This document shows, piece after piece, positions 18,859 to 59,169 of a stretch of DNA of 64,000 bases. The stretch comes from Eledone cirrhosa (taxonomy: Eukaryota): positions 1,426,001 through 1,490,000 of the forward strand of contig OZ024766.1 in the NCBI GenBank assembly GCA_964016885.1. Reading direction: 5' to 3'. Position numbers and translations under genes: made by a program. The notes under the pieces were generated by a model, which did not search any database, was not told where the DNA came from, and worked only from the letters and a program-made list of their open reading frames with translations. Numbering within the stretch: position 1 is the stretch's first letter; every line of letters starts with the position of its first letter.

Positions 18859-18983
18859 TTTTGCAGCTTGGCGAGGTTGCAACTGGGCAAGTTTCTTTGC
18901 AGCTGCTTCAATTGAGCTTGCTGCTCCACGCAGTTCATTTTCTGCAATAACTGTCGGGTCACCATAGTCTACCCAGTTAGGTC
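18859..18983 (-). CDS. TLN: Talin exon (R12-R13 linker/R13 start): (G)PNWVDYGDPTVIAENELRGAASSIEAAAKKLAQLQPRQAAK
   Basis: ttgcag/gtaag, 125 nt, phase 1-0; conserved WVD..DPTVIAENEL.GAA..IEAAAKKL. Confidence 0.96.
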
Positions 18984-19153
18984 CTGCAAAGGTCATTATT
19001 ATTATTATTATTTGTAGTCGGTTAAAATATGTGTGTGTGTGTGTGTGTGTGTGTATGTACCATTGATGATGTCACAGGTGTGATCAAAGAACTTTGATAG
19101 ACTATAATATACGTACCACTGATGATGTCACAGGTGAGTGATGAAAGAACTTT

Positions 19154-19197
<44 letters not shown>

Positions 19198-19714
19198 TTA
19201 TATATATATATATATTTATTTATATATATATATATATTTATTTATATCTACATTTTTAACCGTTGGTCAATCAATGCCAGCTAAATTAACTATAGAGACA
19301 AAATATACAGAAGCGAAAACCAATCCAAACCAAACAGTGAGTGTGTTCTGTTATTTCTGGCAACATTATAACAATATATATATATGCATATATATATGTA
19401 TATATGTATATATGTGTTAAAAAAATAAGAATAACATGTTTTATAAAGGTGATGTCTTTATAATAAACACATTTATTTTAGAGCATAAGTGAACCTCATA
19501 TACAAATTGATTTTAAAATCCTTAGTTCAAAATTCTGCATCAGGTGTACTAACAAACATTGATTTCAAGATTCTTAGCTCAGAATTCTGATATAAGTTCA
19601 TTTTAAAATACTTAGCTCAAATGTTTGTTTTAGGTATATAGCTATCTAATTTAAAAGTTCATTTTAAAATACTTGGCTCAAATTTTTGTTTCCAGTATCT
19701 AACTAATTTAGAGT

Positions 19715-20135
19715 AGCAACTCAACTTGGAGTGACTCTCAGAGATCCAAGCTACGCAGTCTATCGAGTAACATTACTCCAAAGACCCTTCAAAGGAACCC
19801 CATTTTGGCCGCTTGTATATGCAATGTTATTCTTTTGGGCATTACCCAAGATTCATGACCATAGGTAAGGGTTTGTACGAATACCGAATTGAAGATAGCG
19901 AGTTTGGCTTTTTACACCTACCTCCTTTCTTCTGATTACTGACTGCTGAAGCTGGTGCATTACTGCACCAACTCCTGCAATTCTTGTACTTAATTCAGCC
20001 TCCTGCCTTCCATCACTCGTGAACACGGCCCCGAGACACTTGAACTTCTCCACCTGCTTCAGTGGAACTCCATTCACATGTAGAGTGCACTGCGCAGGTT
20101 TCCTTGACAAGACAGGTGTCTCAGCCATGCTGTAC
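19715..20135 (-). mobile_element. RTE-clade LINE RT fragment
   Basis: PLKQVEKFKCLGAVFTSDGRQEAELSTRIA..YGHES; frameshifted. Confidence 0.8.
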
Positions 20136-20723
20136 TCGGTATCAAACCTATCGAGTTTCAGGAACAATTTATTTCAGAGTGAGTGAGAAAGAGATATAGA
20201 GGAAGAATCAACCCCAGTACGAGACTGGTACCATTTTTTTCTGTTGTGACCGTAACATTACCCCCCCCCCCCCCCCCTTCTGTGCCCTATAAATCAAACC
20301 TTCGTTAATTTACACTCATTATATTGGTGTCCTTATTATTATTTTTAAATAAAAAAAAATATCAAGAAAGCAAAATAATATTTTCAGAATAAAATTAATA
20401 TTAACAAAATTAAAATTCTAAAAATAAATTGAATTAACAAAATATTTAAAACAAAAATAACATTAACAAAATGATATTTTAAAATAAAATTCAAATTAAC
20501 AAAATAAATATTTTAAGAAATAAATTATATTAAAATTAATATTTAAAAAAAAAATTTTAAATCTTTAAATAAATTAAGAAAATTTTGTATTTCCTGGCAT
20601 GGAAGAAACTGTGCTCTTTCTCCCCTTTTACCGAAATAAGTCTGGAGAAATTTACCCAGAGGTCAAAGGTTACGTTAGTTATTTTACAATAAACTAACTG
20701 TTGCCCCACCCAAATTTAACACC

Positions 20724-20939
20724 TTAACCCTTTAGCATTTATATTACTCTATATATACTATTGTATTTTCACAGTAAAGGCTTTACCTCGCATAATATTG
20801 AATGTATGAGATTTTGATATTATTTATTTTGAGAACAATACCTTAACATCAGTATGATTGGCCAGTTACAGCCGGCTTGAACTGAAGGAGGTGAAGGAAT
20901 TCTGGCCGGATATGGCCGGTTTAAATGCTAAAGGATTAA
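20724..20939. mobile_element. TTAA-flanked MITE (piggyBac-like ends CCCTTTAGCATTT...AAATGCTAAAGG)
   Basis: Inverted termini with TTAA; partial copies at 21312-21467, 29296-29697 and 36378 onward. Confidence 0.7.
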
Positions 20940-21679
20940 AAGAGGGGTTGTGGTTGTGACTGAGACTCCAGTATATCTTTAAAACCAGGTAATACAGAAA
21001 ATATTTTAATATATATTACGAAAATAAGATTCAAAATATAATTAATAAAATAAAAAAAATAAAAAATAAAAAAATTTACAATATAAAACAAAATTGTATT
21101 AACTGCATTTAAAATTGTTGTTAATTTATTATTATTATTGTTTTCCTATTTTTTTTACTCGATTTTTGTGTATAACCCCCACTGTCCCTGTCTATTGTAT
21201 TGTCCCCTATATGTCAGCCCTTGTGGCCAATAAATGAAACCATTATTATTATTATTATTATGGCCTTGTCTTGTGCCAAAGGTAGAAACAATTATTATTA
21301 TTATCATCATTTACCTCACATAATATCGAATCTATAAGATTTTGATATTATTTATTTTGAGAACAATACTTTAACATCAGTATGATCATCTTGTTACAGC
21401 CAGTTTGAACAGAAAGAGGTGAGAGAATTCTGGCCAGATATGGCCAGTTTAAATGCTAAAGGGTTTTAAATAGTTGGTTTTGTTTCATAGAAAGTGAGCT
21501 GGCTTTGGTTGGGTTTGTATCAATAGTGACAAAAAACATGGCTGAATAACAAAGTACATATTTTGCATAAAATTCATAAAAAATAAGTAGTTAGACTATT
21601 GAAAGATAAATTACATAGAAATATATCAAATGAAAATTGTTAGAATGTAAAACAAAATCAGTTTAAAAAATACATATAA

Positions 21680-24320
21680 ATATATGAAATATTTGCAGAT
21701 ATGAAATAGTGAAGAATATCTACAGATGTGAAATATACGTATATGTGAAATATATGCACGACTAGAATATATATGAATTCTTCATTGAGTTCAATGATTA
21801 TGAAATATAAGCAGAAATATGAAATACAGTAAGTTAACTACAAAAATAATATATAATATATACAGAAGTGTGTAATATAGATGGCCGACTGAAATTTATA
21901 GCGAAATGTATACCAGGAATATAAATGAATCACTGTGAAATCTATGCAGAAACAAATTATATAATTGCACATAGATACAACACACAGGAAAATATCTGTG
22001 AAATTTAGGGAGCAAGCATGCAAAGGGGGGAGTATAGTTATATATATATAACTATGAAATGTGTGCAAAAATAAATTGATGGGAATATATAATGATGGAA
22101 GGCTAATTTAAAAATTTGTGAAATCTGTACAGAAAATGTAACAAGAACTTAGCTTGGCTGACATGAAATGTATGTAGAATTATAAAATCTTTATAAAATA
22201 AACACAGGAACATGTATTATGTGTATAGTCATATTTCATAGAGCTGTATCCTTTTATGAAATATATGCAGAAAAATGTAATAAAGGTTCTGTTAACTGCA
22301 AGCAGGAATATATAGGAAGCCACGGTGAAAGATACGCAGAAATGTACAACATAATGAGTGCTGTGTAAAATTTAAGCAGGAACTTATAGGTGGGGGGCCA
22401 CCGTGAAATATATGTAATGAAAAACCAATAAAAAACAAAACAATTTGGGTGACATTGAAATGGAAAAAGACACAAAAAATGCACTAAAATATCAACACAG
22501 AAAAACGTCACTGTGAAATATATGCAGAAAGAAGTGTGATCTTCAGGGGAGATCTGTGAAATAAGGACATAATTACAACATGTAATATATAGACCTCTGA
22601 CATGTGATATTCGCATATTTCACAGTTATGTGAAATATGAGCAGAAATGTGGAGTGTAACATACAGTCGATCACTATGAAATGTGTGTGGAAATATGGCA
22701 TGAAATATACATTGGGTCACTGTTAAATGTAAACAGATCCATGAAATATAATGTATAATAAGACACTGTGAAATATGTGCAGAAATGTGGAATGTAATGA
22801 ATATACAGTATATTGTTGTGAAATGTAATATAGAACAGGACACTGTGAAAAACTGTGGAAACGTGGCATAAAATATATATACTGAGTCACAGTAAATGGA
22901 TCCATGAAATATGTGCAGAAATGTGGGGTTTAATAAATATATATATATATAGAGTAGGCAGACCCAGAAAAACATGGGACGAGCTGATAAATTCTGACCT
23001 CACACGCTTACACCTCTCCAAGACAATGTCACTGGACCGAGACCTTTGGCGGTACTCAGTAATAGAGAAGACCCGCCTTACCTAAATACAAAGTAAAAAC
23101 CTACTACAGTCAGTAGGCATCTCTAACAAAACACCCCCCCATCCCACCACCTCCACCCCATCCACACCGCCCCTTTCAATGTACAGTTATGTTGGTCCCA
23201 CAACATCCAGGCCGAAACAAATGAGATCGTGTAGGTGTCACGACAAAAAACACACAGTCCACGCTGTAATGTGGCCGTGTAGGTAACACGGTAAAAACCT
23301 CCCAGCCCCACACTGTAAATGTGGTTGGTGTTAGGAAGGGCATCCAACTGTAGAAAACCCGCCAGACAGTCCTATGCGAGCAAGACAATCACTCTTGCCT
23401 CAAGTGGGAAAACCCCCGTCCAAACCCATGCAAGCGTGGAACATGGACGCTAAACCTGATGATGATGATGATGATAGTATATTGTGAAATATCTGGCACA
23501 AAATATACACTAGGTCAGATCTCAGTGAAATGTAAACAGACCCATATACAACACATTACTGTGAAATGTGTGGAAACCTGGCATAAAATATTCACAGGGT
23601 GACATCACAGTGAAATGTAAACAAACCCATGAAATATACAACATGTTACTGTGAAATGTGTGAGGAAACCTAGCATGAAATATACTCTGGGTCACAGTAA
23701 TTAGACCCATGAAATATACGACAAGACACTGTGAAATGTGTGAGGAAACCTAGCATGAAATATACTCTGGGTCACAGTAATTAAACCCATGAAATATACG
23801 ACAAGACACTGTGAAATGTGTGAGGAAACCTAGCATGAAATATACTGGGTCACAGTAATTTGACCCATGAAATATACGACAAGACACTGTGAAATGTGTG
23901 AGGAAACCTAGCATGAAATATACTCTGGGTCACAGTAATTAAACCCATGAAATATACGACAAGACACTGTGAAATGTGTGAGGAAACCTAGCATGAAATA
24001 TACTCTGGGTCACAGTAATTTGACCCATGAAATATACGACAAGACACTGTGAAATGTGTGAGGAAACCTAGCATGAAATATACGACAAGACACTGTGAAA
24101 TGTGTGAGGAAACCTAGCATGAAATATACTCTGGGTCACAGTAATTTGACCCATGAAATATACGACAAGACACTGTGAAATGTGTGAGGAAACCTAGCAT
24201 GAAATATATTCTGGGTCACAGTAATTAGACCCATGAAATATACGACATGTTACTGTGAAATGTGTGAGGAAACCTAGCATGAAATATACTCTGGGTCACA
24301 GTAATTTGACCCATGAAATA
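21680..24320. repeat. Old degenerate GAAATAT/CTGTGAAAT repeat with a homogenised 80-bp array (23700-24320), interrupted by an RTE/SINE composite
   Basis: 80-bp period (23706, 23786, ...); same words in degenerate form upstream. Confidence 0.8.
22950..23475 (+). mobile_element. Composite non-autonomous retroelement: RTE 3' CDS (GRPRKTWDELINSDL..DRDLWRY) plus SINE-like body and (GAT)n tail
   Basis: Close copies at 34640-35330 (-) and 44478-45128 (+); partial copy at 31185-31785. Confidence 0.8.
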
Positions 24321-24594
24321 TAGAGAATGGTAACACTATTGGAATGGAGCATCACAACAATGGTTAACCCTACATGGAGGCTTTAATGTATGTCACATGA
24401 CTGCTACAAGAACAAAAAGGAACATGGAGGAATGCTACACAAAACATTCTACAAAGAATGGAACAGGAATCTCTGGCATTAAAAAATATAATCAACAATT
24501 GATGTCTTCAAAGAATGCTCCACTGGTATTGAGGAATTCTCCAGAAACCATCTATGAATGGCAGAAAGAATATGATTGCAAATACAAGTGGGTG

Positions 24595-25170
24595 AAATGG
24601 GGTTCCTTCGAAGGGTCTGATAGAGGGCATAGCTCGGAGATCAGAGAGTCATTCCAGGTAGAGCTGTTACTTCTCTGATTTGAGAGATCACAGCTCTGAT
24701 ACTATGGACATGTGGTTAGAATGTCTCAAGAAAGAATCACTGGAGAGTCACTCCAGGTAGAGCTGCTACTTCTCTGAATTGAGAGATCACAGCTCTGGTA
24801 CTATGGACATGTGGTTAGAATGTCTCGGGTAAGAATCTCTGGAGAGTCACTCCAGGTAGAGCTGCTACTTCTCTGAATTGAGAGATCACAGCTCTGGTAC
24901 TATGGACATGTGGTTAGAATGTCTCAAGAAAGAATCTCTGGAGAGTCACTCCAGGTAGAGCTGCTACTTCTCTGAATTGAGAGACCACAGCTCTGATACT
25001 CTGGACATGTGGTTAGAATGTCTCAGGAAAGATTTTATGGACAAAACCAACTGGCCAAGATGGTCGGATAACATCCATGAGCCTGGTTGGTTGGTCTTGT
25101 TTGGGGATCCAGCCAGATCAATTGGAGATGGTTGCTTCTGATAGGACCTACTGGAAGGGGTACTTGCAGA
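24595..25170 (+). mobile_element. RTE fragment containing a 99-bp tandem array (~4 copies)
   Basis: EMGFLRRV..IRES.QVE.LLL.IERSQL.YYGHVVRMSQER; unit period 99. Confidence 0.8.
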
Positions 25171-25234
25171 CTCTGCTTGCCCCCCCCCCCACCCCACACA
25201 ACCTTCTCCAGGAATAAGTGGACAAAGAAGAAAA

Positions 25235-25692
25235 AAATGGTTTCTAATTTAATCAAAGTGCCAATGATTTTGGAGGTGGAGGAGGGGAAAGTTGATTAAA
25301 ACATCCCCAGTGGATTACTGGTACTTTATTTTATCGACCCCGTAAGGATGAAAGGCAAAGTTAACCTTGGTGTGGGATTTGAACTCAGAACGTAAAGGGA
25401 CTTAACTCTATACTGCAAAGCATGGTGTCTGATGCTCTACCAATTTTGCGATTTCACCTCAATAATGATAATGGTTTCGGATTTAGGCACAGGGCCAGCA
25501 ATTCTGGGGGAGGGAAGTCGATTAAATCAATCCAGTGTATTACTGGTACTTTATTTTATCGACCGCCCGACCACAGCCTCCGCCCCCCTCCCCCGTAACG
25601 ATGAAAGGCAAAGTGTTAACCTCTGCGGGATTTGAACTCAGAACATAAAGGGCCATAACTCTGTGCTGCCTGCAAAGCATGGTGTCCGACCT
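25235..25692 (-). mobile_element. Two tandem copies of the abundant octopod-type tRNA SINE
   Basis: Reverse complement of GAGTTCAAATCCC..GGTTAACTTTGCCTTTCATCC..GATAAAATAAAGTACCAGT. Other copies: 34430-34625, 35335-35487, 41680-42090, 48460-48640, 55070-55620, 57342-57510, 63435-63665. Confidence 0.85.
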
Positions 25693-25884
25693 ACATAATA
25701 ATAATAATAATAATAATAACAATAATAACAATAATAACAACAACAACAACAATTCTAGCTACAACAGCTACTACAACAACATGGTAACAACAACGACAAC
25801 AACAACAACAACAATGACAATGTTTATAGGAAAATAAAAGAAGGGGGTGGTGGTGGTTTGGTTAGAATATAAAAGAGAACCAAC

Positions 25885-25896
25885 CTAATGTACCGT
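25885..25896 (-). CDS. TLN: Candidate 12-nt talin microexon ACGGTACATTAG (adds DGTL)
   Basis: CACTAAC branch point, gtgttgttgtctccag acceptor, gttggt donor; phase 1-1, no stop. Confidence 0.6.
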   Translation of the reverse strand, partial: TVH

Positions 25897-26699
25897 CTGG
25901 AGACAACAACACGTTAGTGTCAGTTTTATATTTCTCTGTAGGGGAAAAGAACACACATGGGTGTAGTGATACAGCGGTAATGAAAATAGTTCTTGGGAAA
26001 CACAAAATAGTTCTCTGGTAAAACTAGGATGATACCATGACAACAGTAGTAGTAGTAGTAATAATAATAGAAATGGAAATAATAGTAGTAGTAGTAGTAA
26101 TAATAGAAATGGAAATAATAGTAGTAGTAGTAGTAGTAGTAATAGTTGTTTTGTGTCTGTTTTCTCATGGGTGTAGTGATACAGCGGTAATGAAAATAGT
26201 TCTTGGGAAACACAAAATAGTTCTCTGGTAAAACTAGGATGATACCATGACAACAGTAGTAGTAGTAATAATAGAAATGGAAATAATAGTAGTAGTAGTA
26301 GTAGTAGTAGTAGTAATAATAGAAATGGAAATGATAGTAGTAGTAGGACCAGTAGTAGTAATAATAATACTAGTAGAAGCAGTAATAGTAGTACCAGTAG
26401 TAGTAATAATAGTAGTAGTAGTAGTAGTAGTAGTAATAATAGTAGTAGAAGCAGTAGTAATGCGTCCTATATTTCTTCTCTGTGGAGAAAAGAACATACA
26501 TGGGTGTAGTGATACAGCAATAATGAAAATAGTTCTTTGGAAACAAAATAGTCCTCTGGTAAATAAGAATTTAAATAAGAATTTAAATAAGCGCCCTTTA
26601 AAATGGTCAGTTTTGTTATAAAGAACCAGTGTCAAGTTGGTGGAAGAGACTTGATATTTATGTTTTGAACAGAATGGGTTGAGCTAAACTGCCCACCCA

Positions 26700-27260
26700 A
26701 TGTGTCACAAAACTTAGGGTGTTTGGAACATAACTTAACAAAGGTTCTTAGATAAAATTATGATGAAAGGTTCTTAGATAAAATTATGATGAAAGGTTCT
26801 TAGATAAAATTATGATGAAAGGTTTTTAGATAAATATAAACACTTTAAAACAGTTTTGTATCATAGAACCAGGGGTGTTTGGGACATAACTTAACAAAGG
26901 TTCCTACATAAAATTATGATGAAAGGTTTTTAGATAAATATAAACACTTTAAAACAGTTTTGTATCATAGAACCTGGGGTGTTTGGGACATAACTTAACA
27001 AAGGTTCCTACATAAAATTATGATGGAAGGTTTTTAGATAAATATAAACACTTTAAAACAGTTTTGTATCATAGAACCTGGGGTGTTTGGGACATAACTT
27101 AACAAAGGTTCCTACATAAAATTATGATGAAAGGTTTTTAGAATAAATATAATCACTTTAAAACAAATAGTTTTGTATGATAGAACCAGGGGTGTTTGGA
27201 ACATAATTTAACAAAGGTTCTGACAAACAGTTCTGTATGATAGAACCGGGAGGCAGTATC
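26700..27260. repeat. ~105-bp tandem repeat (GGGTGTTTGGGACATAACTTAACAAAGGTTC...), with a related copy at 32890-33050
   Basis: Direct reading. Confidence 0.85.
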
Positions 27261-27454
27261 AGGAATGCTGGTAACAAAAGGGTTAAACATTTATAAAAAT
27301 CAACTACTTCAAACATATTCAAATGAGATATATGAAATGACAGGCTGCAAATTTAACAGATTTCATGAAACTTGAAGTGACCCCAAAGAACAGAGGTCAA
27401 GAATCCCTTTTCTCTGGATTGTGCTGGGGTTTTGTATTCTGGTACATATATAAT

Positions 27455-27494
<40 letters not shown>

Positions 27495-27716
27495 TATATA
27501 TATATAAATACACACACACACATACATATGTATATATAAATACACACACACACATACATATGTATATATAAATACACACACACATACCATTATTAATATA
27601 AATACACATGCACACACACATATGTGTATATACACATACACACACACACACACATACATACATATATATATATATAAATACACACACACATACCATTATT
27701 AATATAAATACACATG

Positions 27717-27764
<48 letters not shown>

Positions 27765-28165
27765 GCAAATTTAATAATTTGCTAAGGTAAGATTTTTTTT
27801 GCTACCTTAGCAATTTTAATTTTCTTTCTAGTGCATTGTATGGTTTACAAAATTATTTAAATTTGTGTTTCCTGTTCAACAATGCTTCAAGCAAACTACT
27901 ATGTACATATATATATATATATACATGCATATATATATATATATAATACACACAGAAATTGTGGTGTGTATATATAAAGCAGATGGATGTGAAAAGGGGT
28001 GGGGGTGGGGTGGACAAAGCTACTACAGTTATTGTTACTTATAATACATCAATATACACACACATCCATATATGTATATATATATGCACACACACATATA
28101 TATATATATACACACACACATATATATATATATATATACACACACACATATATTTATTCTTTCTC

Positions 28166-28202
<37 letters not shown>

Positions 28203-28269
28203 ATATAGGGGTCTAAGCCAGTGTATTGGGGTTTAAGGATGTGAATGCTACTACAACACAACATATATA

Positions 28270-29974
28270 CAAGGGGGCTTCAAAAAGTTTGTGGAAAAAG
28301 TACATAGTTAAAAATTATATGCAGGGATTTTTATCTCAATGCACCCGGATGTTCTCGTACTAACGTGTGATAACATGTTCTAAAATGAACCCTTAAATAC
28401 ATGTTGCAATGCAGCGCCACCTGCTGGAAGTCAGTGCTCCCTCGAGTAACATGGCCTCCATCAAAACTGAAGGCAGTACAAATTTCAAATTCATGGAAAA
28501 GCTAGGGTGGAAGAGCAACCATATCATTGTCGCTCTGGAGCAAGTTTACGGGGACAATGCCCCAAAGAAATCAACAACCTACAAATAGATAAGTCGTTTT
28601 AAAAGTGGAACAGATCAGGTTGAAGATGATCTCCGCAGTGGCAAGCCATCCACGTCAGTCTGAGTGGAAAACATTGATGCTTTTCGCGACCTAATTGAAA
28701 AGGATAGGCAAATAACCACTGAATCAGTAGCAGACACACTCAGTATCTCCGTTGGTTCTGCACACGTGATTCTGCTGGTGGAGGGTTTGGGGCTGAGCAA
28801 GCTTTCCGCTCGATGGGTCCCAAAGCTGTTGCGATCAGATCAGCAGGAAACAAGGGCAGATCTTTTGATGGAAATTTTGAACAATTGGGATTAAGACCCC
28901 TGAAGATTTTCTGCAGAGAATTGTTACCAGGGATGAAACATGGCTCTACGAGTACGGCCCCGAGGACAAAGCTCAATCGAAGCAGTGGCTGCCCCAGGGG
29001 CGGAAGTTGGCCAATCAAAGCAAAATTGGAGTGTTCAAGAGGGAAGGTCATAGCCACTATCTTCTGAGATACAGAGGGGATTTTGCAGGTTGACTTCCCC
29101 CGAGAACAATTACAGCTGCATATTATGAAGGCATTTTGAAAAAAACTGGCCAAGAAAATTGAGGAAAAATGCCTGGAGAGGCTGCATCAATGCGTTCTCT
29201 TCCACCACAACAATGTGCCCACTCATAGCACTTAGCAGACACAAGTTGTGTTACAAAAAACTCGATGGGAAATTTTCTGACACCCACCTTATCTCTTTAA
29301 CCTTTACATTACTCTATATTTACTATTATGTTTATGGTAAAGGCTTTATCTTACTTCAGGTCAGTCTTGAGTACTACTGGTAACATGTAACCCAGAACAA
29401 CCTGTCGCATGGTCGACTTAGAAGAGAACTATTGACCTTCAGGAGAAACAGCGACCCCTGATTGTATTCAGCAACCAAAACAAATATGAAGTACACCAAA
29501 TCCAATGCTCCTAGGGGCTGCCCAGGTTCTTCTTATTTGCGAGGGTAAACTCGGCCAGATTAGATTAGATTTATCTTACATAATATCTCACATAATATCG
29601 AATCTATGAGATTTTGAGGTTATTTATTTTGAGAACAATATCTTAACATAAATATGAGTTGCCAGATACAGCCGGTTTAAATGCTAAAGGGTTAAAATCC
29701 CAATTTAGCCCCATCCAACTTCTTTTTGTTTCCAAACCTGACAAAACCATTGCAAAGTAGCCATTTCCCATCAGTTGAAGATGTAAAAAAAAAGCTGCCT
29801 TGTCATGGTTTAAATCACATGGCCCTCAGTTTTACAAAGATGGATCTAAAGGCTGGTATCAATGTTTCCACAAGTGTACTGACCTAGCTGGAGCATATGT
29901 TGAACATTAAACATCATAACTTAAACCGCTTTTTTCCAACTGTCCCTTTTCCACAAACATTTTGAAGCCCCCTC

Positions 29975-29975
<1 letters not shown>
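28270..29975 (+). mobile_element. Full-length degenerate mariner (DD34D) transposon with nested insertions
   Basis: 29-bp TIRs C(A/G)AGGGGGCTTCAAAA(A/T)GTTTGTGGAAAA, TA TSD. Transposase from ATG 28451 with WVPKLL, DETWLYEY, HPPY..PNLAPSNFFLFPNL; contains stops and frameshifts. Confidence 0.92.
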
Positions 29976-30028
<53 letters not shown>

Positions 30029-30074
30029 CCCATGCTAGCGTGGAAGATAGACGTTAAATGATGATGATGATATA

Positions 30075-30500
30075 TATATATATATAATAGACTGAGCCGG
30101 TGTAGGGGGTGTTAAGGATATGAAAGCTACTACAACACATATATATAATAGACTGAGCCAGTGTAGAGGGTTGTTAGGATATGTAAGCTACTACAACACA
30201 AACATATATATATATATAAATATATATATATATAATGGACTGAGCCAGTGTAGGGGGGGGGTGCTAAGGATATGTAAGCTACTACAACACAAACACATAT
30301 ATATATATAAATATATATATATATAATGGACTGAGCCAGTGTGGGGGGGGGGGGGGGTTAAGGATATGTAAGCTACTACAACACAAACATATATATATAT
30401 AATGGACTGAGCCAGTGTAGGGGGGTGTTAAGGATATGAAAGCTACTACAACATATATATATATAATGGACTGAGCCGCTGTGGAGGGGTGTTAAGGTTG
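30075..30500. repeat. Tandem repeat GACTGAGCCAGTGTAGGGG..AAGGATATGTAAGCTACTACAACA with (TA) spacers, ~6 copies
   Basis: Direct reading; a single copy lies left of the mariner (28210-28262). Confidence 0.8.
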
Positions 30501-30521
30501 TGAAATTATTTATAGACATAC

Positions 30522-30533
30522 CTCCTACAAGAC
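30522..30533 (-). CDS. TLN: Candidate 12-nt talin microexon GTCTTGTAGGAG (adds GLVG)
   Basis: cattctctttcatccag acceptor, GAG|gtatgt donor; phase 1-1, no stop. Confidence 0.65.
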
Positions 30534-31299
30534 CTGGATGAAAGAGAATGGAATGATCCATGAGTGAGACATGGTATTGGGGGGAGGGGAGGCAGTGAGA
30601 GTAGCCAAATGTGGAGAGGGTGGGGGAAGTTGTAGTGGTGGAGTGGTGGTGGTGGTAGGGTGTAGTGGTGGTGTAGTGGTGGTGGTGTAGTGGTGGTGGT
30701 ATATGTGGTGGTGGTGGCGTAGTGTAGAGTGTAGTGGTGGTGGTGGTGTAGTGTAGTAGTATATGTGGTGGTGGAGTAGTGTAGTGTAGTGGTGGTAGTG
30801 TGGTGTAGTGTAGTGTAGAGTGTAGTGGTGGTGGTGGTGGTGTAGTGTTAAGCGTGGTGGTGGCGTAGTGTAGAGGGTAGTGGTGGTGGTGGTGTAGGGT
30901 AGTGGTGGTGGTGGTGGTGGTGGTGGTGTAGAGTGTAGTGGTGGTGTGGTGTAGTGGTATATGTGGTAGTAGAAGAGGTGGATAGCCAGGATGAGTTGTT
31001 AGAGTCAGAAAACCTCTACATCTACTCTCAAGATGGGTTAGTATAAAACAGAAACAGCAGCAATTACAGAAAGCACTGGCAACATTTGAGATGTAGTCCT
31101 CCCAATGGAAATGACTATAAGAAATAGTTGATCAGAAAAAATGGTTGAAAATCCTCTCTTACAAAGCCGCAAATCTCTCCACCTCACTTCACTTTTGAAA
31201 AATCACCCGTAACCTCTGGTGTCACGCAGTAATACAGAAGACCCGACTTCCCATGGGTACAAGCCGAAGCTGAAACATATAGACAGTATGACCCCACCC

Positions 31300-31715
31300 C
31301 CTCCCACTGTAAAGTGGTTGTGTAGGTGTCACAACAAAAGACACCCAGTCCACACTGTAAAGTGGTCATGTAGGTGTCACAACAAAAGACACCCAGTCCA
31401 CACTGTAAAGTGGTTGTGCAGGTGTCACAACAAAAGACACCCAGTCCACACTGTAAAGTGGTCGTGTAGGTGTCACAACAAAAGACACCCAGTCCACACT
31501 GTAAAGTGGTTGTGTAGGTGTCACAACAAAAGACACCCAGTCCACACTGTAAAGTGGTCGTGTAGGTGTCACAACAAAAGACACCCAGTCCACACTGTAA
31601 AGTGGTTGTGCAGGTGTCACAACAAAAGACACCCAGTCCACACTGTAAAGTGGTTGTGTAGGTGTCACAACAAAAAACACCCAGTCCACACTGTAAAGTG
31701 GACGTGCAGGTGCCA
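31300..31715. repeat. 48-bp minisatellite (~8.5 copies) amplified inside a SINE body
   Basis: Period 48 (31305, 31353, ...); single-copy equivalent at 44890-44935. Confidence 0.92.
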
Positions 31716-32261
31716 TGGTAAAAAAGCACCCAGCATTCACTGTAAATGAGGTTTGTGTTACGAAGGACCCCCATCTGTAGAAATCAGAAATTTGTATGAT
31801 TTTCAAAAGGATTCAACATCAAAGATGGGTGAGTTGCATAACGTTGAGTGCTTTCCTACCATTACATCATGATTAACATTGCTGAATGACCAACTCTACC
31901 CAATGGTGAACCACCAAATTTGTACGTGTATATATATATATACACACACACGTCCAAAAATAGCCGCCGAAACGGCTTGAGCTCTGCCGTCGAGGTCTTG
32001 AACATTTTCCTATATATATGTATATATAAATGTATATAAATGTATATATATATATATATTTCCAGAGATAGTTTACCAAATTTTCTCCAATTCCTGTGTT
32101 CAACTATTATTATAATCACTTACATTGTTACAACTACATTTCAAATAGCAAATATAATATATACATTTTTCTCAACATACATACAATCATATATAATTAA
32201 TAAATATTCTGATTAGTAAATAAATATATACACAGACACACACATATATACATAGACATAC

Positions 32262-32310
<49 letters not shown>

Positions 32311-32374
32311 CAAATATATAGTTTCTTGAAACCTTCAGTAATGAAATAATTATATTGTGTTGTTTATTATATAA

Positions 32375-32448
<74 letters not shown>

Positions 32449-32744
32449 TATAAATTATGTCCATAGAATCATTTGATAAGATATATACACCATTTCCTCT
32501 CCCAATCAGCATAATCAACCACACAAAAAACTAATTAAACCAGGCTATAAGATTAAAAGGCACCTATGAAGAAATAGTAGATAAATAAACAACAGCCATC
32601 TATTCACGATCAACAGCTATAAAATATTTACCCAGCATTTCAATAGCACGTGGGAATCGATTAAATATATCGTCAACCATACACAATTAGGTATAAAATT
32701 AAAGTTAGAAGAAAAAATGCATATAAACAGAAAAACAGATATAC

Positions 32745-32753
32745 CAGGAAAAT
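32745..32753 (-). CDS. TLN: Candidate 9-nt talin microexon ATTTTCCTG (adds DFP)
   Basis: actgatggtgttttatatag acceptor, CTG|gtatat donor (weak); phase 1-1. Confidence 0.4.
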
Positions 32754-33400
32754 CTATATAAAACACCATCAGTTTAGATTTTAAATTTGCATTGTATGTT
32801 TTAAAACAGCAACAACAACAAAAACAACAACAGCAACAACAAAATAAAAAAATGAAAAATATAAGAAAATAAAATGTGATAAAATGTTATATATAGAACC
32901 AGGGGTGTTTGGAACATAACTTAACAAAGGTTCTTACAAACAGTTTTCTATCATAGAACCAGGGGTGTTTGGAACATAACTTGACAAAGGTTCTTACATA
33001 AAATTATGATGGAAGGTTTTTAGCTAAATATAAACACTTTCAAACAGTTTATCTATGTAACTATATATATAAGAGGCTTATTTGTTTTATGAAATACTAT
33101 CATCCTTATATGTCTGTCTGTGTGTCTTTCGGGTGAGGAAGTGTTGGGGGAATTAGGGTGGTGAATTAAATGATAACGAGGCTGGGTGATCTAATTAAGG
33201 CTAACTAATTAACGAAGGGGACTAATTGGAGAAATAAATGAATATGAAACTATTAATAAAATGTAATAAACAACAAAAAGATGAAATAATAGTATATATA
33301 TATATATGTACATATATATATATGTACATATATATATATATATATGTACATATATATATATATATATGTATGTACATATAAATATATATACACACAAATA

Positions 33401-34070
33401 CAGGGTGGTCCAAAAGTCACAACTGTTTTTTATTTTATAATATTTTTCCTTTCTCTTCAGGAATTATATGAACTAGGCCTGGGAAATTAATTATGGAAAA
33501 ACACAGCACCGAGCAATGCACCCTAGTTGGCAAATACTTCTAAAACCAGGGATCGATAATTCAGACCCAGAGAGCACATCGGTGACATATGTTCCCAGTG
33601 ACAGTGCAATTAGGAAATTGGTTAATTGTTTCGAATAGCAAGGAGCAGTAAGTGATCCCTCATGAACTGGGAGGCCTTGCACTGTCAGAACTGATGAGAC
33701 AAGGGAACAAGTTGGAGAGAGTGTCAAGGAAAATCCGGGCACGTCGACTCAAAGGCAATCAAGACAGCTGGGGATTTCACGAACTTCGCTGCAAAGGGTT
33801 CTCAGAAACCTTGTTGCCCTTTTTCCATACAAGGTGCAACTGGTTCAACAACTGAAGCCCCCAAACTATCAACAGAGGCTCCAATATGCTGTCAGAATTC
33901 AGGAATTGGTGAGAAATGACCAACATTTACCCAAAATTTTACCCAAGGATTGATGAGGGCAAAATAATTTCCATTATGTCCTTTAAATCGTATCAAAATT
34001 TCATATTTCAATCTGTACAATTCAGGAAGTTAATAAAAACTAAAACCCGTGTGACTTTTGGGCCACCCTG
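33401..34070 (+). mobile_element. Internally deleted Tc1/mariner-superfamily element (N-terminal HTH region only)
   Basis: TIRs CAGGGTGG(T/C)CCAAAAGTCAC with TA TSD; peptide SAIRKLV..GRPCTVRT..ENPGTSTQRQSRQLGISRTSLQRVL..FPYKVQLVQQL. Confidence 0.88.
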
Positions 34071-35820
34071 TATATATATATAAAAATATATATGTACATA
34101 CATGCATGTGTATATATATATATACACACATATATATATATATATATATATTGACAAAAATATAAAATATAAATATAACAGAACTGATGAAGATTTTAAC
34201 GAACAAATTAACACAGGAATAAATTAATTATAATTTGTTAGCAATTAACAATTAATTAATAAATAAGTAATAAAGTCAATCAATCAGACAATTAATCCAG
34301 AACAAAAATTTAATTCATTAATTAAATAAAAATAATAAATTAATTAATGTATAAAAAAAAGTATTAATTATTTCAAAAACAGTTTTCATAATTACATAAT
34401 AACGAGGATATTAATAATAATATTAATAATAAAATGGTTTCTTATATAGGCAAAAGGCCAGTAATTTGGGGGGTGGGGAAAGTCGATTAAATCGACCCCA
34501 GTGTGTGACTGGTACTTTATTTTATTGACCCTGTAAGGATGAAAGGCAAAGTTAACCTCGGCGGGATTTGAAGTTGGAACATAAAGGGACGCAACTCTAT
34601 GCCACAAAGCATGTTGTCCGACGCCCTACCACTAAATAACATCATCATCATCGTCATCGTTTAACATCTATCTTCCACGCTAGCATGGGTTAGACGGGAA
34701 TTTGTCCCACTTGAGGCAAGATTGGTCGGGTGACCATGTGTCGCTCGTATAGGACTGTCTGGCAGGTTTTCTATGGCTGGATGCCCTTCCTAACACCAAC
34801 CACGTTTACAGTGTGGACTGGGAGGTTTTTACCGTGTTACCTACACGGCCACATTACAGTGTGGACTGTGTTTTTTTTATTTTGTCGTGACACCTACACA
34901 ACCTCATTTATTTAGGACTGGATGTTGTGGCACCAACATAACTTTACAGAGAAAGGATGGTGTTGATGGGGGTAGGGTTAGTGGGAGGGGGTGTATATTT
35001 GGTTAAGAGGTGCCTACTGACTGTAGGTTTCACTTTGTACATAGGTAAGGCGGGTCTTCTGTATTACTGCGTAGCGCCAAAGATCTCGGTCCAGTGACAT
35101 TGTCTTGGAGAGGTGTAAGTGTGTAAGGTCGGAATTTATCAACTCGTTCCAGGTTTTTCTGGGTCTACCTACTCCGTAACTTCCATCAATTTTGATCGCC
35201 CTGCACTTTTTTATACAGCTGTCGTCTTTAACGCGCATCACGGGGCCATACCAACAGAGTCTTCTCTCAAGTAAACAGCATCTGATCCCTCTTATTCCTA
35301 ATTTCTCACTTAGTTCACTTATGTGTGGCATATAGTTACATCCCTTTTACGGTTTGAGTTCAAATCCCGCTGAGGTTAACTTTGCCTTTCATCCTTACGG
35401 GGTCGAGAAAATAAAGTACCAGTAATGTACTGGGGTCGATTTAATCGACCCCCCCCCCCCCGCCCAAATTGCTGGTCCTTTACCTATATTATTATTATTA
35501 TTATTATTATTGTTAAAAAAGACAGTTTAGAAAGAAAAAGAATATTAATCATCATCAACATTATTATGGTTATCATCATCATCATCATGAACATCTTTAT
35601 CCAAGCAGTGATGCTATTAATAGGAGAGATATCTTTTCAGAGCAGCCAGACAGACAGACAGACAGGAAGAGGGGGGGGAGTAGATAGGAAGGGAATATAG
35701 AGAGAGGGGGAAGATATATAATTACAGAGAGGGAGAGAGAGAGATAAAAGCAAACACAAAGGGAGACAATCAGGAAAAAGCACACGAGAAAAGCAATGTA
35801 TGTATAATTAAAAGTGTGTG

Positions 35821-35852
<32 letters not shown>

Positions 35853-36020
35853 CACACACGTAACATATACACATATATACATATACACACACATACATAT
35901 ACACACATAAATAAATACATATATATAAATACATATATATATATAAATACATATCTATATATATATACATATATATATGTACATATGCATATATATACAT
36001 ATATATATGTATGTGTGTAT

Positions 36021-36058
<38 letters not shown>

Positions 36059-36377
36059 GTGTGTCTCATCTCCAATATGTTGGTTGGTGTGTTAAATTCA
36101 AATCTTCCAATACTTCTACAAACAGATAAGTCACTGTCATTATTTATTTATTTATTTTTTGGTTTTTGGTGGGCAGTGACTACACCTTTGACCATGCTTT
36201 ATCTACACCTTCTTTAACATCTCTGACCACCCCTCAAGCCACATATACCACCCTCTAATGATCTTAGACCCTTCTTATATGCGCCGAGAGCCCTTTAAAA
36301 TATATATTGGCCTGTAACCCTTTTGATACCCATTTGGCCAAAACCAGTTCAGCTTCTATGATACAAAATCACCCTAT

Positions 36378-37340
36378 TTAACCCTTTAGCATTTACATTA
36401 CTCTATATATACTATTGTATTTTCACAGCAAAGGCTTTACCTCACATAATACCTCACATAGCATTTACATTAGTCTATATATACTATTGTATTTTCACAG
36501 TAAAGGCTTTACCTCACATAATACCTCACATAACATTTACATTACTCTATATATACTATTGTATTTTCACAGTAAAGGCTTTACCTCACATAATACCTCA
36601 CATAACATTTACATTACTCTATATATACTATTGTATTTTCACAGTAAAGGCTTTACCTCACATAACATTTACATTACTCTATATATACTATTGTATTTTC
36701 ACAGTAAAGGCTTTACCTCACATAATACCTCACATAGCATTTACATTACTCTATATATACTATTGTATTTTCACAGTAAAGGCTTTACCTCACATAATAT
36801 CTCACATAACATTTACATTACTCTATATATACAATTGTATTTCACAGTAAAGGCTTTACCTCACATAATATCTCACATAACATTTACATTACTCTTTATA
36901 TACTATTGTATTGTCACAGTAAAGGCTTTACCTCACATAATACCTCACATAACATTTACATTACTCTATATATACTATTGTATTTTCACAGTAAAGGCTT
37001 TACCTCACATAACATTTACATTACTCTATATATACTATTGTATTTTCACAGTAAAGGCTTTACCTCACATAATATCTCACATAACATCTACATTACTCTA
37101 TATATACTATTGTATTGTCACAGTAAAGGCTTTACCTCACATAATATCTCACATAACATTTACATTACTCTATATATACTATTGTATTTTCACAGTAAAG
37201 GCTTTACCTCACATAATACCTCACATAACATTCACATTACTCTATATATACTATTGTATTGTCACAGTAAAGGCTTTACCTCACATAATATCTCACATAA
37301 CATTTACATTACTCTATATATACTATTGTATTTTCATGGT
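36378..37340. repeat. 72-bp (and shorter variant) minisatellite, ~13 copies, amplified from the left part of the TTAA MITE
   Basis: Period 72 (36390, 36462, 36534); starts with the MITE end TTAACCCTTTAGCATTT. Confidence 0.93.
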
Positions 37341-37999
37341 AATTATAACGAAAGTATTCTATCTGACATCTTGACTTAATTGCCCCGTTTATAAGGATTA
37401 ACCCCATGTAAACCCTGACTCTATCACACCCCTGCCACACCACATTTACCCAAAAAATAAAAATTAAAAAATGACAGATCTTTAACAAAATTAATAAAAA
37501 ATTAAAAATCAATAAAAAGTATTGTAAGAACTGAAAAAAAAAATAACTGATAATTACAATTACACACAATTAAAATACATTTAACTGATAATTGTAATTA
37601 ATATTATTTTAATTATTGAATTACAAATGGCACACAACAAACAAGAGCGTTGTTAAGTAGAAATATATTTAAAATTAAAAATAATAATAAACCAAACCTT
37701 TCTGAGATCCCCGCTGCACCCCACCCCGCCACTGGGCCCCACCCTCCCTTTTTAGGGGACAGTGAGGAGAGTGTTATAAACTAGATAGCGGTTGTTATGG
37801 TTAAATATATACACCATATTTCGTCCACCCAGGGACGATATATACAGTTCTTTTCAAGGGCGGTGCCCCAGCATGATCTAAGCCGGTAAGCTGGAACAGG
37901 TAAAAGAGTAGATGCTATGGATATTTAAGGTGTATAATTGAAGGTAATATATCTCCTTAACCTTTAACATGCTCTAGACAATATAAGGCGCCTATGGAG

Positions 38000-38850
38000 T
38001 AATCTCCCTTGCGACTAACCCAGGTTCTGCTGCATGTCGGGCCGAGGAGGCCAAACTCTCCAAGTACCAGTCGCTCTCCGACAGGTTCGCGGTCGTGCCC
38101 TTTGCAGTGGTGACTTATAGTATCCTTGGCCCTAGGGCTACCTCCCTACTTACCACCAGAGGCGCTGAGATGGCTACCCCTAGCAGTGGTGACTTATAGT
38201 ATCCTTGGCCCTAGGGCTACCTCCCTACTTACCACCAGAGGCGCTGAGATGGCTACCCCTAGCAGTGGAGACTTCTGGTGTCCTTGGCCCTAGGGCTACC
38301 TCCCTACTTACAAACATAGGTACAGACCTGGCTACCCGTAGCAGTGGAGACTTCTGGTGTCCTTGGCCCTAGGGCTACCTCCCTACTTTCCACCAGAGGC
38401 ACAGACCTGGCTACCTGTAGCAGTGGAGACTTCTGGTGTCCTTGGCCCTAGGGCTACCTCCCTACTTACAACCGTAGGTACAGAGTTGGCTACCCGTAGC
38501 AGTGGAGACTTCTGGTGTCCTTGGCCCTTGGGCTACCTCCCTACTTTCCACCAGAGGCACAGACCTGGCTACCTGTAGCAGTGGAGACTTCTGGTGTCCT
38601 TGGCCCTAGGGCTACCTCCTACTTACCACCAGAGGCACAGACCTGGCTACCCGTAGCAGTGGAGACTTCTGGTGTCCTTGGCCCTAGGGCTACCTCCCTA
38701 CTTACAACCGTAGGTACAGAGTTGGCTACCCGCAGGTGTGAGCCTCGTGAGATGAAATGGCTCTTTCAGCGCATCTCCCTTACCATCCTCCGGGGAAAAG
38801 GCTTTTCCTTTCTGTCTGCCGGGGCTGTGGGGCAGCCAGCACGTGGGACC
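38000..38850 (+). mobile_element. 3' end of a CRE-like (restriction-like endonuclease) non-LTR retrotransposon with an internal 79-bp tandem array
   Basis: PGSAACRAEEAKLSKYQSLSDRFAVVPFAV..VETSGVLGPRATSLL..EPREMKWLFQRISLTILRG; unit 79 bp, ~8 copies. Confidence 0.8.
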
Positions 38851-39258
38851 CCTTTTTCTCACAATACAGAGAGAGATGGGGTGGGTGAGAGAGATGGAGG
38901 TGGGTGAGAGAGATGGAGGTGATGACAGTGGGAGTTTGGTTCCTCTGTGTTCGGACCTGGTGTACATGAGATGGGGAGGGTGAGAGGGATGGAGGAGATG
39001 ACAGTGGGGTAGAACCCGGGTGGGGGGAGAGGTGGGGGGAGAGATGGGGGGGGAGAGATGGGGGGAATCAAGGTAAGAAAGGTTTGATTTAAAAAAAAAA
39101 TTTTTTTTTAAATAATTATATATATAAAAAAAAATTAATGCATTAATGAAAAACGTTTAGAGAGGTTAAAAAAAGAAAGGGGAGTAACTCAGGGTGACAC
39201 AACGCACAGCACATTATTTTTTCTTTGTTTTTGTTTTGTAGAGCAAGCCACAACAAAC

Positions 39259-39282
39259 CTTCGTTATCTTGGATGTGATAAG
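39259..39282 (-). CDS. TLN: Candidate 24-nt talin microexon CTTATCACATCCAAGATAACGAAG (adds AYHIQDNE)
   Basis: tttttcgtttttccag acceptor, AAG|gtttgt donor; phase 1-1, no stop. Confidence 0.65.
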
Positions 39283-39450
39283 CTGGAAAAACGAAAAACT
39301 TTTAAAGCTGAAAACAACCTTCAAACACTGGAGAGCTCGCATCGGATTTTATTTGAAGAGAGAAACAAGGGGAGGTAACAATGTAGTGTCGATAACAACA
39401 ACAACGGCAACAACAACAAACAGCAGCAATTGGTGCTTCTATATAATGTG

Positions 39451-39497
<47 letters not shown>

Positions 39498-39627
39498 CAC
39501 AGACACACCTGTATACATGTAAATATATGCATGCGTGTGTGTGTATATATGTGTTAATTTTGGTGCAGTATGATGTATGTGTGTGTGTGTATATATACAT
39601 ATACACACACACACATTGGTATTATTA

Positions 39628-39670
<43 letters not shown>

Positions 39671-39723
39671 GAAGGAACAGTAAGTTGCAGGTGTTATGAC
39701 AAACAAAATATGAGTGTTTAATA

Positions 39724-39793
<70 letters not shown>

Positions 39794-39795
39794 AC

Positions 39796-39837
<42 letters not shown>

Positions 39838-41490
39838 GACCAAATAACTTATCTTATTTTTTTAGTAATTTAGTAACAGGACTATAACTTGAAGTTTCAT
39901 GTTTATATTTTCACAAGTTCATTGTAATATAATAATAATATATACACACACACACACACACACATATATACATACACACACACATATATACACACATACA
40001 TACACACACACACATATATATATATACACATATATACATACACACACACACATATATATATATAGTAAGTTTTTTTTTATAATACAATTTAAATATGGAC
40101 ATTTTTGTTCTTAGTTTTGTAAGGAAAGGCCAGGTAAGTGGCTAAGCTAACACACACCTCAGTATATAACTGGTATCTGACCACACCACACAGTACTCTA
40201 TCGAAACAGCCCCCCACCCCTGTCTGCTACCTCACCAAAAAAAAAAAAAAAAAACAGGAAAAAAATACACCAAACTGGGAGGTTTTTAGGTTTTATCTGG
40301 ACACACCATATCAAAAATACCCCCCCCCCCCACTAAAATTAAAACCTCTAGGTGGTGGGGTCAGTAAGGATGAGGTGAGGTGTGAGGGTGCAGAAAGCAG
40401 TGATCGAAACACTCAGGTGAAAAAAAAAAAGAAAAAAAAACAAACAAAAAAAAAAAAGGGGTCAGAGGAAGGGATTGGGTGGGAAGTGCATGCTGAAAAC
40501 CCTTCTAATGGTCTAAAACAGGCATGTCAAACTGAGGGTCCCCTGAGGGGCACATGTGTTGTCTGAGGGTCACACACGACAACTTATTGCGCATGTTACA
40601 ACTAATATCTTTTATTTTATTTTAGAAATCAAGCCAGAATCAGTTCCCGCCCCGCCCCACCCTTGCAAGCAGGGGACAGCGGACGTAGAGTGATGATGAT
40701 GATGATGACACTTGCGCTGTTTAAAAACCTTTGTGAGGGCCGCCACAGATGTGATTGTAAAGGGCCGCATATTTGTCATGCCTGGTCTAAAACATCCAAA
40801 CACTGCACTGCGCCACCCAGCACCCTCTTTTGTGATGTACCATGCTCCAGCCCCACCCCAGAACATACACAGGGGAGGGGACTGTGGCAGATATACAGAG
40901 GGACTAACATCCACTTGTCACGCCCTCTAGGGCTCTGCCCCATCCCGGGGAGCAGGATGCAAGGGGGACTGTAGCAGATATAGAGAGACAAACATCCACT
41001 TGACCTGCCCTCTAGGGCTCCGCCCTGCACCACCCCAGGGAGAGGGACGGCAAGGGAGAACTGTCCCGCCCTCCCCTGTCATGCTCAGATCCAGAAAATA
41101 CAAGGGGAATGTAAGAGATATAAAGGGAGACAAACATCAACTTGCCCCACCCTCCCCTCTTGTGCCATATCCCGCCCCCGTTTTCCGCGCCCCGCCCTCT
41201 TGCGCCATACCCTGCCCACGTTTTCCCCACCCCACCCTTGTGCCATACCCCGACCACTTTTTCCACGCCCTCTTGTGCCATACCCTGCCCACGTTTGTGC
41301 CATGCTCCACCCTCCTGTGTCTGGCCCAATCCCAGAACATACTAAGAGATAGAAGGGGGAGGGGGGAGGAGAGATGGGGAAGAAGGAGGAGGGGGAGGAG
41401 AGATGGGGAAGAAGGAGGAGGGGGAGGAGAGATAGAAGGGGAGGGGTGTAGTAGATATAAAGGAAGACAACTATGAAATGTTTTAATCAC

Positions 41491-41596
41491 CTTTGATTGC
41501 CTCCGCACACTGTACAATGTCCGCTACAGAGGTGGCTACATTTCTTGAGACTGTTACCATATTCTGTTTAGACTCAGCCGACGGCTTCTGTAGAGC
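41491..41596 (-). CDS. TLN: Talin exon (end of R12): ALQKPSAESKQNMVTVSRNVATSVADIVQCAEAIK(G)
   Basis: ttgcag/gtgatt, 106 nt, phase 0-1; aligns with the vertebrate LQKPS..AEAMKG segment and joins in frame to 18983. Confidence 0.94.
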
Positions 41597-58747: not shown

Positions 58748-59169
58748 TATATACACATGTATGTATATATATATTGATTGCGTCAATCGTTTCATGCCAT
58801 GGCGAAAGAAAGTGGATACCGGACCTCAGCCGCAGAAGACACAACGTCAGAAATCTGAAATATCAGGGGTGTATACAGATATATATATATACACTCACAC
58901 AACATACATACATTATACAACATCACAACATCTATGTATATGAAGTGAATATACTGGGTTGTAACATAACTTCCCGCCGTTGTTATAACACTTCTTAATA
59001 AAAAAAACGGCGGGAATCTATGTTACAACCCAAATATATTATATAGGTAAGTGATGATGTTTGCTTGAAGAATTGTGGATGGTATCTTTGTTATTAATAA
59101 AGTGGTTAGATCGTTACCTTGAGATATCTTAATTAGTCATTAATATTCTTATGCTATCGCGAATACAAG

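Follow-up and report, generated by a model that had tools for sequence, protein, structure and literature searches.

Cassette exons at the R12-R13 junction of octopod talin coincide with a mapped autoinhibitory contact

The closest described systems are splice variants of the talin rod. Human TLN1 exon 17b is a tissue-variable, frame-preserving cassette of 51 nucleotides (nt) that adds 17 amino acids to the link between bundles R1 and R2; models show it as largely unstructured, with a helix extended, and it lowers bundle stability and unfolding force (PMC9997659). In mammals, TLN2 exon 54b, the major brain form, and the skipping of exon 43 give in-frame variants of the C-terminal rod (PMC2702505). 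An invertebrate with a single talin gene, Ciona, splices the different C-terminal forms Talin-a and Talin-b, by which the I/LWEQ module and its actin affinity are altered (PMC1702346). Here we describe cassette exons at the junction of rod bundles R12 and R13 in the octopod Eledone cirrhosa. They lie in a stretch of 64,000 nt (assembly GCA_964016885.1, contig OZ024766.1, positions 1,426,001 to 1,490,000 of the forward strand; hereafter the window), which carries the 3' end of the talin gene on its minus strand. Unlike exon 17b, the octopod site is at the R12 end, inside a lid between head and rod, and has two or three cassettes. TLN2 exon 54b, in contrast, is an exon extension within R13 (residues 2458-2459) rather than a cassette at 2291-2292. 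Whereas splicing in Ciona changes the I/LWEQ module, that of the octopod is untouched.

The lid itself is known from talin-1. In the autoinhibited protein, E2288 and D2297 are contacted by the F2 residues K272 and K274; together with E2294 these two acids form an acidic R12 lid over the face of the head that binds phosphatidylinositol 4,5-bisphosphate (PIP2) (PMC6856716). Charge-reversal mutants of the lid bind more vinculin head, and removal of R12 opens vinculin and actin binding (PMC6856716). The octopod insertion point falls between the named acids of this lid, and the equivalents of K272 and K274 (F2 of the Octopus vulgaris protein) and of E2288, D2297 and D2300 (window) are kept; octopods differ from talin-1 in lacking acids at 2294 and 2299. 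So far the R12 lid has been probed by engineered charge mutants and truncations; the point mutations were made in mammalian talin-1, and no natural splice variant is described in the parts of that work covered here (PMC6856716). Talin opening sets the timing of integrin activation and vinculin recruitment, and natural splice variants through the lid would be ready-made reagents for its role in cells.

In talin-1 numbering the insertion point is K2291|G2292: the upstream exon ends at 2291 (6R9T) and the downstream exon contains W2295. The splice junction thus separates E2288 from the rest of the acidic patch (E2294, D2297). An earlier reading of the window from its letters alone (the sequence-only reading) had placed a phase-1 talin intron of 22.5 kb at the R12-R13 boundary on the minus strand, and in these respects it was correct. 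The features concerned are as follows.

41491..41596, minus strand: constitutive talin exon with the last R12 helix; contains the E2288 equivalent, terminates at the K2291 equivalent and is spliced in an RNA contig
18984..41490, minus strand: host intron, phase 1, 22,507 nt, both ends fixed by the spliced RNA contig
18859..18983, minus strand: constitutive talin exon from G2292 onward, with the W-V-D linker (D2297 and D2300 equivalents) and R13 helix 1
39259..39282, minus strand: cassette exon A, 24 nt, AYHIQDNE; 7 of 8 residues as in the O. vulgaris insert AYYIQDNE
25885..25935, minus strand: cassette exon B, 51 nt, EKYKTDTNVLLSPDGTL; 12 of 17 residues as in the O. vulgaris insert

The evidence for exons A and B comes from O. 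vulgaris, to whose talin the exons found here are 90-100% identical, barring one high-scoring segment pair that extends into an intron. The O. vulgaris cluster comprises 10 proteins, nine of which span the junction and eight of these are named. Among the eight named models four carry both inserts (AYYIQDNE and EKYKTDPSALPSPDGKL), one carries A alone, one B alone and two neither, and the ninth spanning protein has neither insert. The alternative forms of the O. vulgaris annotation stem from PASA updates with short and long reads (PMC10700109), and the accessions used here presumably belong to that annotation. When both strands of the host intron were searched with the inserted peptides, the best match to A was at 39282-39259 (score 35 vs 23 for the next) and the best match to B at 25935-25885 (score 55 vs 26). 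Both fall exactly between splice sites, which are canonical, and both segments are stop-free with a length that is a multiple of three. Because of the four combinations in O. vulgaris and of matches bounded exactly by splice sites, A and B are almost certainly real cassettes that are used independently. What is supported is therefore two cassettes and four forms, adding 0, 8, 17 or 25 amino acids; the 16 isoforms of 0-19 amino acids that had been proposed are not. The skipped form is made as well, since an RNA contig identical to the window (run X10) joins the exon end at 41491 directly to the exon start at 18983. A match of run X11 at the upstream exon is unspliced DNA. Runs X5 and X7 yielded nothing at that exon, nor did X8, X9, X11 and X12 at the downstream exon (0 of 4), and these blanks carry no weight as evidence.

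We propose that these frame-preserving cassettes (24 nt, 51 nt and probably one more of 12 nt, see below) insert peptide between K2291 and G2292, and that the inserts would split the acidic patch at the R12 end and move E2288 away from D2297 and D2300. If octopod talin uses the same F2-R12 lid as mammalian talin-1, the changed geometry and charge of the lid would alter how R12 covers the PIP2-binding face, and thus the ease with which talin opens. As the insertion point is inside the lid, autoinhibition is a likelier target than actin binding. To this reading, a change of lid geometry and charge and thereby of the ease of opening in either direction, we give a probability of about 0.5. Loosening is the simpler guess for the direction. 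Exon A, however, terminates in D-N-E and brings two acids to a junction whose octopod sequence has none at 2294 or 2299, so that it could tighten the lid. Among 88 distinct junction contexts, D or E is found at 2294 in 87 and at 2299 in 76, and D at 2300 in all 88; the counts at 2288, 2295 and 2297 are forced by the search pattern and were not used. When O. vulgaris R12-R13 including A and B is modelled with AlphaFold, both bundles are preserved, the last R12 helix runs on through A, and most of B is coil. At low confidence, the model thus suggests that exon A may lengthen the last R12 helix and that exon B may form a flexible loop.

Inserts at the same junction occur outside the cephalopods, so that the phenomenon is not confined to them. 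All the cross-species inserts are from computed gene models, not experiments. Among gastropods, named models with an insert here are found in Biomphalaria, Littorina, Arion, Lymnaea, Physella and Babylonia, and also in Pomacea, Gigantopelta, Patella, Haliotis and Bradybaena. The bivalves with such a model are Mizuhopecten, Pecten, Argopecten, Mya, Mytilus, Magallana, Crassostrea and Ostrea, and several gastropod and bivalve models have at least two independent cassettes at the junction. The nemertean Lineus carries inserts of 46-76 amino acids. In Oncorhynchus talin-2 a two-residue insert, DG, is present in 6 of the 12 proteins that cover the site among the matches listed, and one Pomacea protein also has DG; this insert is either a 6-nt exon or a tandem acceptor. 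Across lineages the inserts range from 2 to 76 amino acids. None was seen in the proteins of Lottia, Nucella, Ylistrum, Saccostrea, Mercenaria, Sinanodonta and Tegillarca or of Argonauta (for some of these, one protein each). Among the matches listed, all 59 proteins of nine other invertebrate groups are insert-free (Lingula 6, Owenia 3, ticks 10, scorpions 9, spiders 6, amphioxus 7, Ptychodera 7, Antedon 9, lice 2).

A conserved exon of 11-12 residues with an E-I-R-W-S-like core is common to many of the gastropod and bivalve inserts (11 distinct versions; P0020, P0077, P0091, P0160, P0285 and others) and puts a second W a few residues ahead of the W2295 equivalent. It was not found in the host intron, where the best profile hits score 19.0 and 18.4 vs 19.3-27.6 for true members. 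The second of these hits is repeat DNA with splice scores of -8.7 and -2.5, and the EIRWV look-alike at 29294-29262 was discarded for being repeat DNA flanked by poor splice sites.

What makes the locus interesting is less an array of 16 isoforms than a recurrent splicing hotspot that falls on an autoinhibitory contact already mapped. The variants hint at a way in which a species with a single talin gene could acquire talins of differing thresholds for muscle, skin or neurons. A wider and distinctly tentative proposal is that molluscs and the nemertean, and independently salmonid talin-2, tune the activation threshold of talin by small R12-lid exons, with an alternative last exon two bundles upstream (described below) giving a natural lid-less talin. 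This would give a tissue-set series from closed to permanently primed, with three cassettes and eight lid states in the present gene. In the literature we found no description of this splice junction, and splicing databases and supplements may list the exons. Talin rod splicing as such is known, and A and B are already in public gene models; if the exons hold but the mechanism fails, they are an ordinary cassette pair.

Several observations weigh against an effect on the lid. The talin-1 lid has been characterised as loose, with 2K and 5K mutants that remained compact (PMC6856716); in higher-resolution structures F2, R12 and R13 are mobile (PMC11519669). With N at 2294 and G at 2299, the octopod lid is less acidic. 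The AlphaFold model gives A a predicted local distance difference test score (pLDDT) of about 51 and B one of about 41, with a predicted template modelling score (pTM) of 0.47. Exon B is kept much less (12/17) than the flanking exons (90-100%), and neither A nor B has sequence in common with the inserts of other lineages. No insert was present in the one Argonauta protein or in four cephalopod-like transcript proteins. Finally, the only contig of window-identical RNA (1/1) omits all inserts, and contigs lose rare forms.

The inserts might instead act on the C-terminal actin site, much as the sequence-only reading had it when it proposed that they tune the length of the linker before that site. 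A longer R12-R13 tether would ease the release of R13 helix 1, or allow R13 and the dimerisation helix to reach actin, with head-rod autoinhibition unchanged. R13 helix 1 begins about 8 residues past the insertion point, binding to filamentous actin displaces this helix, fragments extended towards R11 change their oligomer state (PMC11831117), and splicing of this module in Ciona varies actin affinity (PMC1702346). However, the insert is upstream of the entire W-V-D linker, so that linker and helix 1 remain joined. Moreover, actin can already reach R13 when talin is closed, and R12 shows flexibility in the complex with actin (PMC6856716; PMC11831117). With the insertion point splitting the acidic F2-R12 lid, an effect on the actin site is the weaker reading, and we consider it unlikely.

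Somewhat less probable again is that the inserts are docking or phosphorylation motifs on an exposed hinge, which would recruit a tissue-specific partner without altering the talin fold. The retention of the E-I-R-W-S-like exon in both gastropods and bivalves suggests that its sequence is under selection, and exon B, which is predicted to be disordered, retains S-P-D-G in both octopods. Against this, the conserved W-bearing exon was not found in the host intron, and there is no known partner.

In a third explanation, a tolerant hinge on an old intron lets small exons arise that are included at a low level and have little effect. The variation of the inserts between lineages (2-76 amino acids) would fit, as would the occurrence of an intron at this position in other animals, and the fact that the form assembled from window-identical RNA is the skipped one. 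But A and B are retained in both octopods and the W-bearing exon across two mollusc classes, and the 59 listed isoforms of the nine invertebrate groups are insert-free though their talins vary elsewhere. We regard such neutral tolerance as improbable, and the lid remains the preferred target.

The individual segments of the host intron were assessed by their splice sites. Four AG..GT segments (24, 9, 12 and 12 nt) had been pointed out at 39282-39259, 32753-32745, 30533-30522 and 25896-25885, and they exist with the peptides given for them (AYHIQDNE, DFP, GLVG and DGTL). Their phase 1-1 character is caused by a length that is a multiple of three, not by the final G to which it had been ascribed. 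The intron contains 508 AG..GT segments of 3-60 nt that keep the frame and are stop-free; the pattern as such could thus not be confirmed as above chance, and by itself it says little. A splice-site model was trained on the talin gene itself (52 donors and 51 acceptors, one doubtful acceptor being excluded). Two cassettes in other parts of the gene, known from O. vulgaris isoforms, served as controls and rank 1 of 106 and 3 of 332 within their introns. Among the 508 segments GLVG ranks first (21.9 bits), exon B third (17.3 bits), exon A fourth (15.2 bits), DGTL seventh (13.2 bits) and DFP 143rd (1.4 bits). Chance rates were taken from 799,600 control bases and scaled to an intron of the size of the host intron, which gives about 50 expected segments at 1.4 bits, 2 at 13.2, 1 at 15.2 and 0.3 at 17.3. 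No site reaches 21.9 bits in the 799,600 control bases, nor in 264 kb of antisense sequence or 114 kb of other talin introns, and by the rule of three the chance rate at this score is bounded near 0.08 per such intron. The scores alone therefore pick out GLVG only. High-scoring AG..GT pairs with a length that is not a multiple of three are also present, for example 29436-29288. The remaining features of the intron are the following.

30522..30533, minus strand: candidate 12-nt microexon GLVG, 21.9 bits, in no stored isoform
25885..25896, minus strand: DGTL, the last 12 nt of exon B, 13.2 bits, a score reached about twice per intron by chance
32745..32753, minus strand: DFP, 9 nt, 1.4 bits, most likely no exon
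26476..26563, minus strand: partial duplicate (90%) of the exon B acceptor region, after which the rest of the exon is absent

No other AG..GT pair in the intron, at lengths up to 300 nt, scores as high as GLVG, which is single-copy in the genome; its AG-free zone is 478 nt long, part of it simple repeat. An exon of 12 nt is short enough for aligners to miss. Neither GLVG nor DFP is present in any stored isoform protein, and a metagenome scan for cephalopod DNA with which to compare GLVG gave 11 loci, with best segments 45-82% identical to a cephalopod-like query, none of them usable. We consider GLVG probably real and a likely third cassette, as a candidate of which no transcript was seen. 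DFP was rejected as a microexon, its splice sites being at background level (rank 143 of 508, where about 50 are expected) and the segment being in no stored isoform.

The 51-nt exon B had been overlooked as a whole, and the DGTL microexon turns out to be its tail. A CTAAC branch-point-like motif lies 21 nt upstream of DGTL, and no isoform with DGTL alone is found among the nine O. vulgaris proteins; that DGTL marks an inner acceptor of exon B is conceivable but doubtful. The duplicate of the exon B acceptor region is 550 nt upstream of exon B, inside a local 210-nt duplication. Of the combinatorial model, frame-preserving cassettes are borne out by the O. vulgaris models, the 24-nt exon among them, while the set of four microexons is not. 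That four independent microexons (24, 9, 12 and 12 nt) would give up to 16 isoforms is very improbable: although all segments exist in frame, with two in the top four ranks and a third in seventh place, and annotation pipelines often overlook exons so short, DFP is at background, DGTL is the tail of a 51-nt exon, and DFP and GLVG are in no stored isoform.

Neural microexons of the eMIC/SRRM type have a length cut-off of at most 27 nt, within which A and GLVG fall and B (51 nt) does not. These microexons have a UGC close to the 3' splice site and a long AG exclusion zone (10.1101/2021.02.24.432780). Here no UGC occurs within 30 nt of the acceptor in any of five segments (0/5), UGC being an enrichment and not a rule, and the AG exclusion zones are 14 nt for A, 54 nt for B and 478 nt for GLVG. 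As regards UGC, the neural microexon signature is thus absent. The locus does share with eMIC/SRRM microexons and splicing hotspots the short exons with lengths that are multiples of three, the long introns and the independent gains by lineages at one gene (10.1101/2021.02.24.432780; 10.64898/2026.09.05.749416), and it differs from them in the acceptors without UGC and the length of exon B. Talin is not named in the main text of either report.

With the window and 200 kb of neighbouring genome, 52 talin introns were placed. The host intron is by far the largest of those complete in the window, the other eight being 297-3,086 nt, and to this extent it had rightly been called giant. In the gene as a whole it is less so: the median of the 52 introns is 909 nt, six exceed 6.9 kb, and the next intron upstream, which extends out of the window, is 19.4 kb long (65826-46406).

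Inside this 19.4-kb intron is an alternative last exon of 20 codons and a stop (window 58792-58854, minus strand), which matches the terminus of O. vulgaris isoform P0214. With this exon talin stops near residue 2119, not far from where the lid-less N-R11 construct (1-2141) stops, which binds vinculin and more actin (PMC6856716). Models with the same endpoint are found in many molluscs, ticks, spiders, a louse and salmonid talin-2; amphioxus talin at that endpoint instead runs into 1,886 unrelated residues.

Two talin exons have their 5' ends partially copied in tandem directly upstream of the true exons, at extended coordinates 69540-68806 (L002) and 97215-96901 (L005). About six of the copies are spaced 101 nt apart and another three are present; all could be decoy acceptors or assembly artefacts. 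Two frame-keeping segments in other talin introns, of 18 nt (extended coordinates 81220-81203, L003) and 24 nt (120977), are unannotated and score 15.8 and 18.1 bits, within the chance range. Elsewhere in the gene, a 24-nt cassette, TVSSKELQ (L005, extended coordinates 94113-94090), matches a variable insert of O. vulgaris isoforms near residue 1411, and a 30-nt cassette, YYASWNSRAL (L004, 88542-88513), in an intron of 14.7 kb, matches one near residue 1508.

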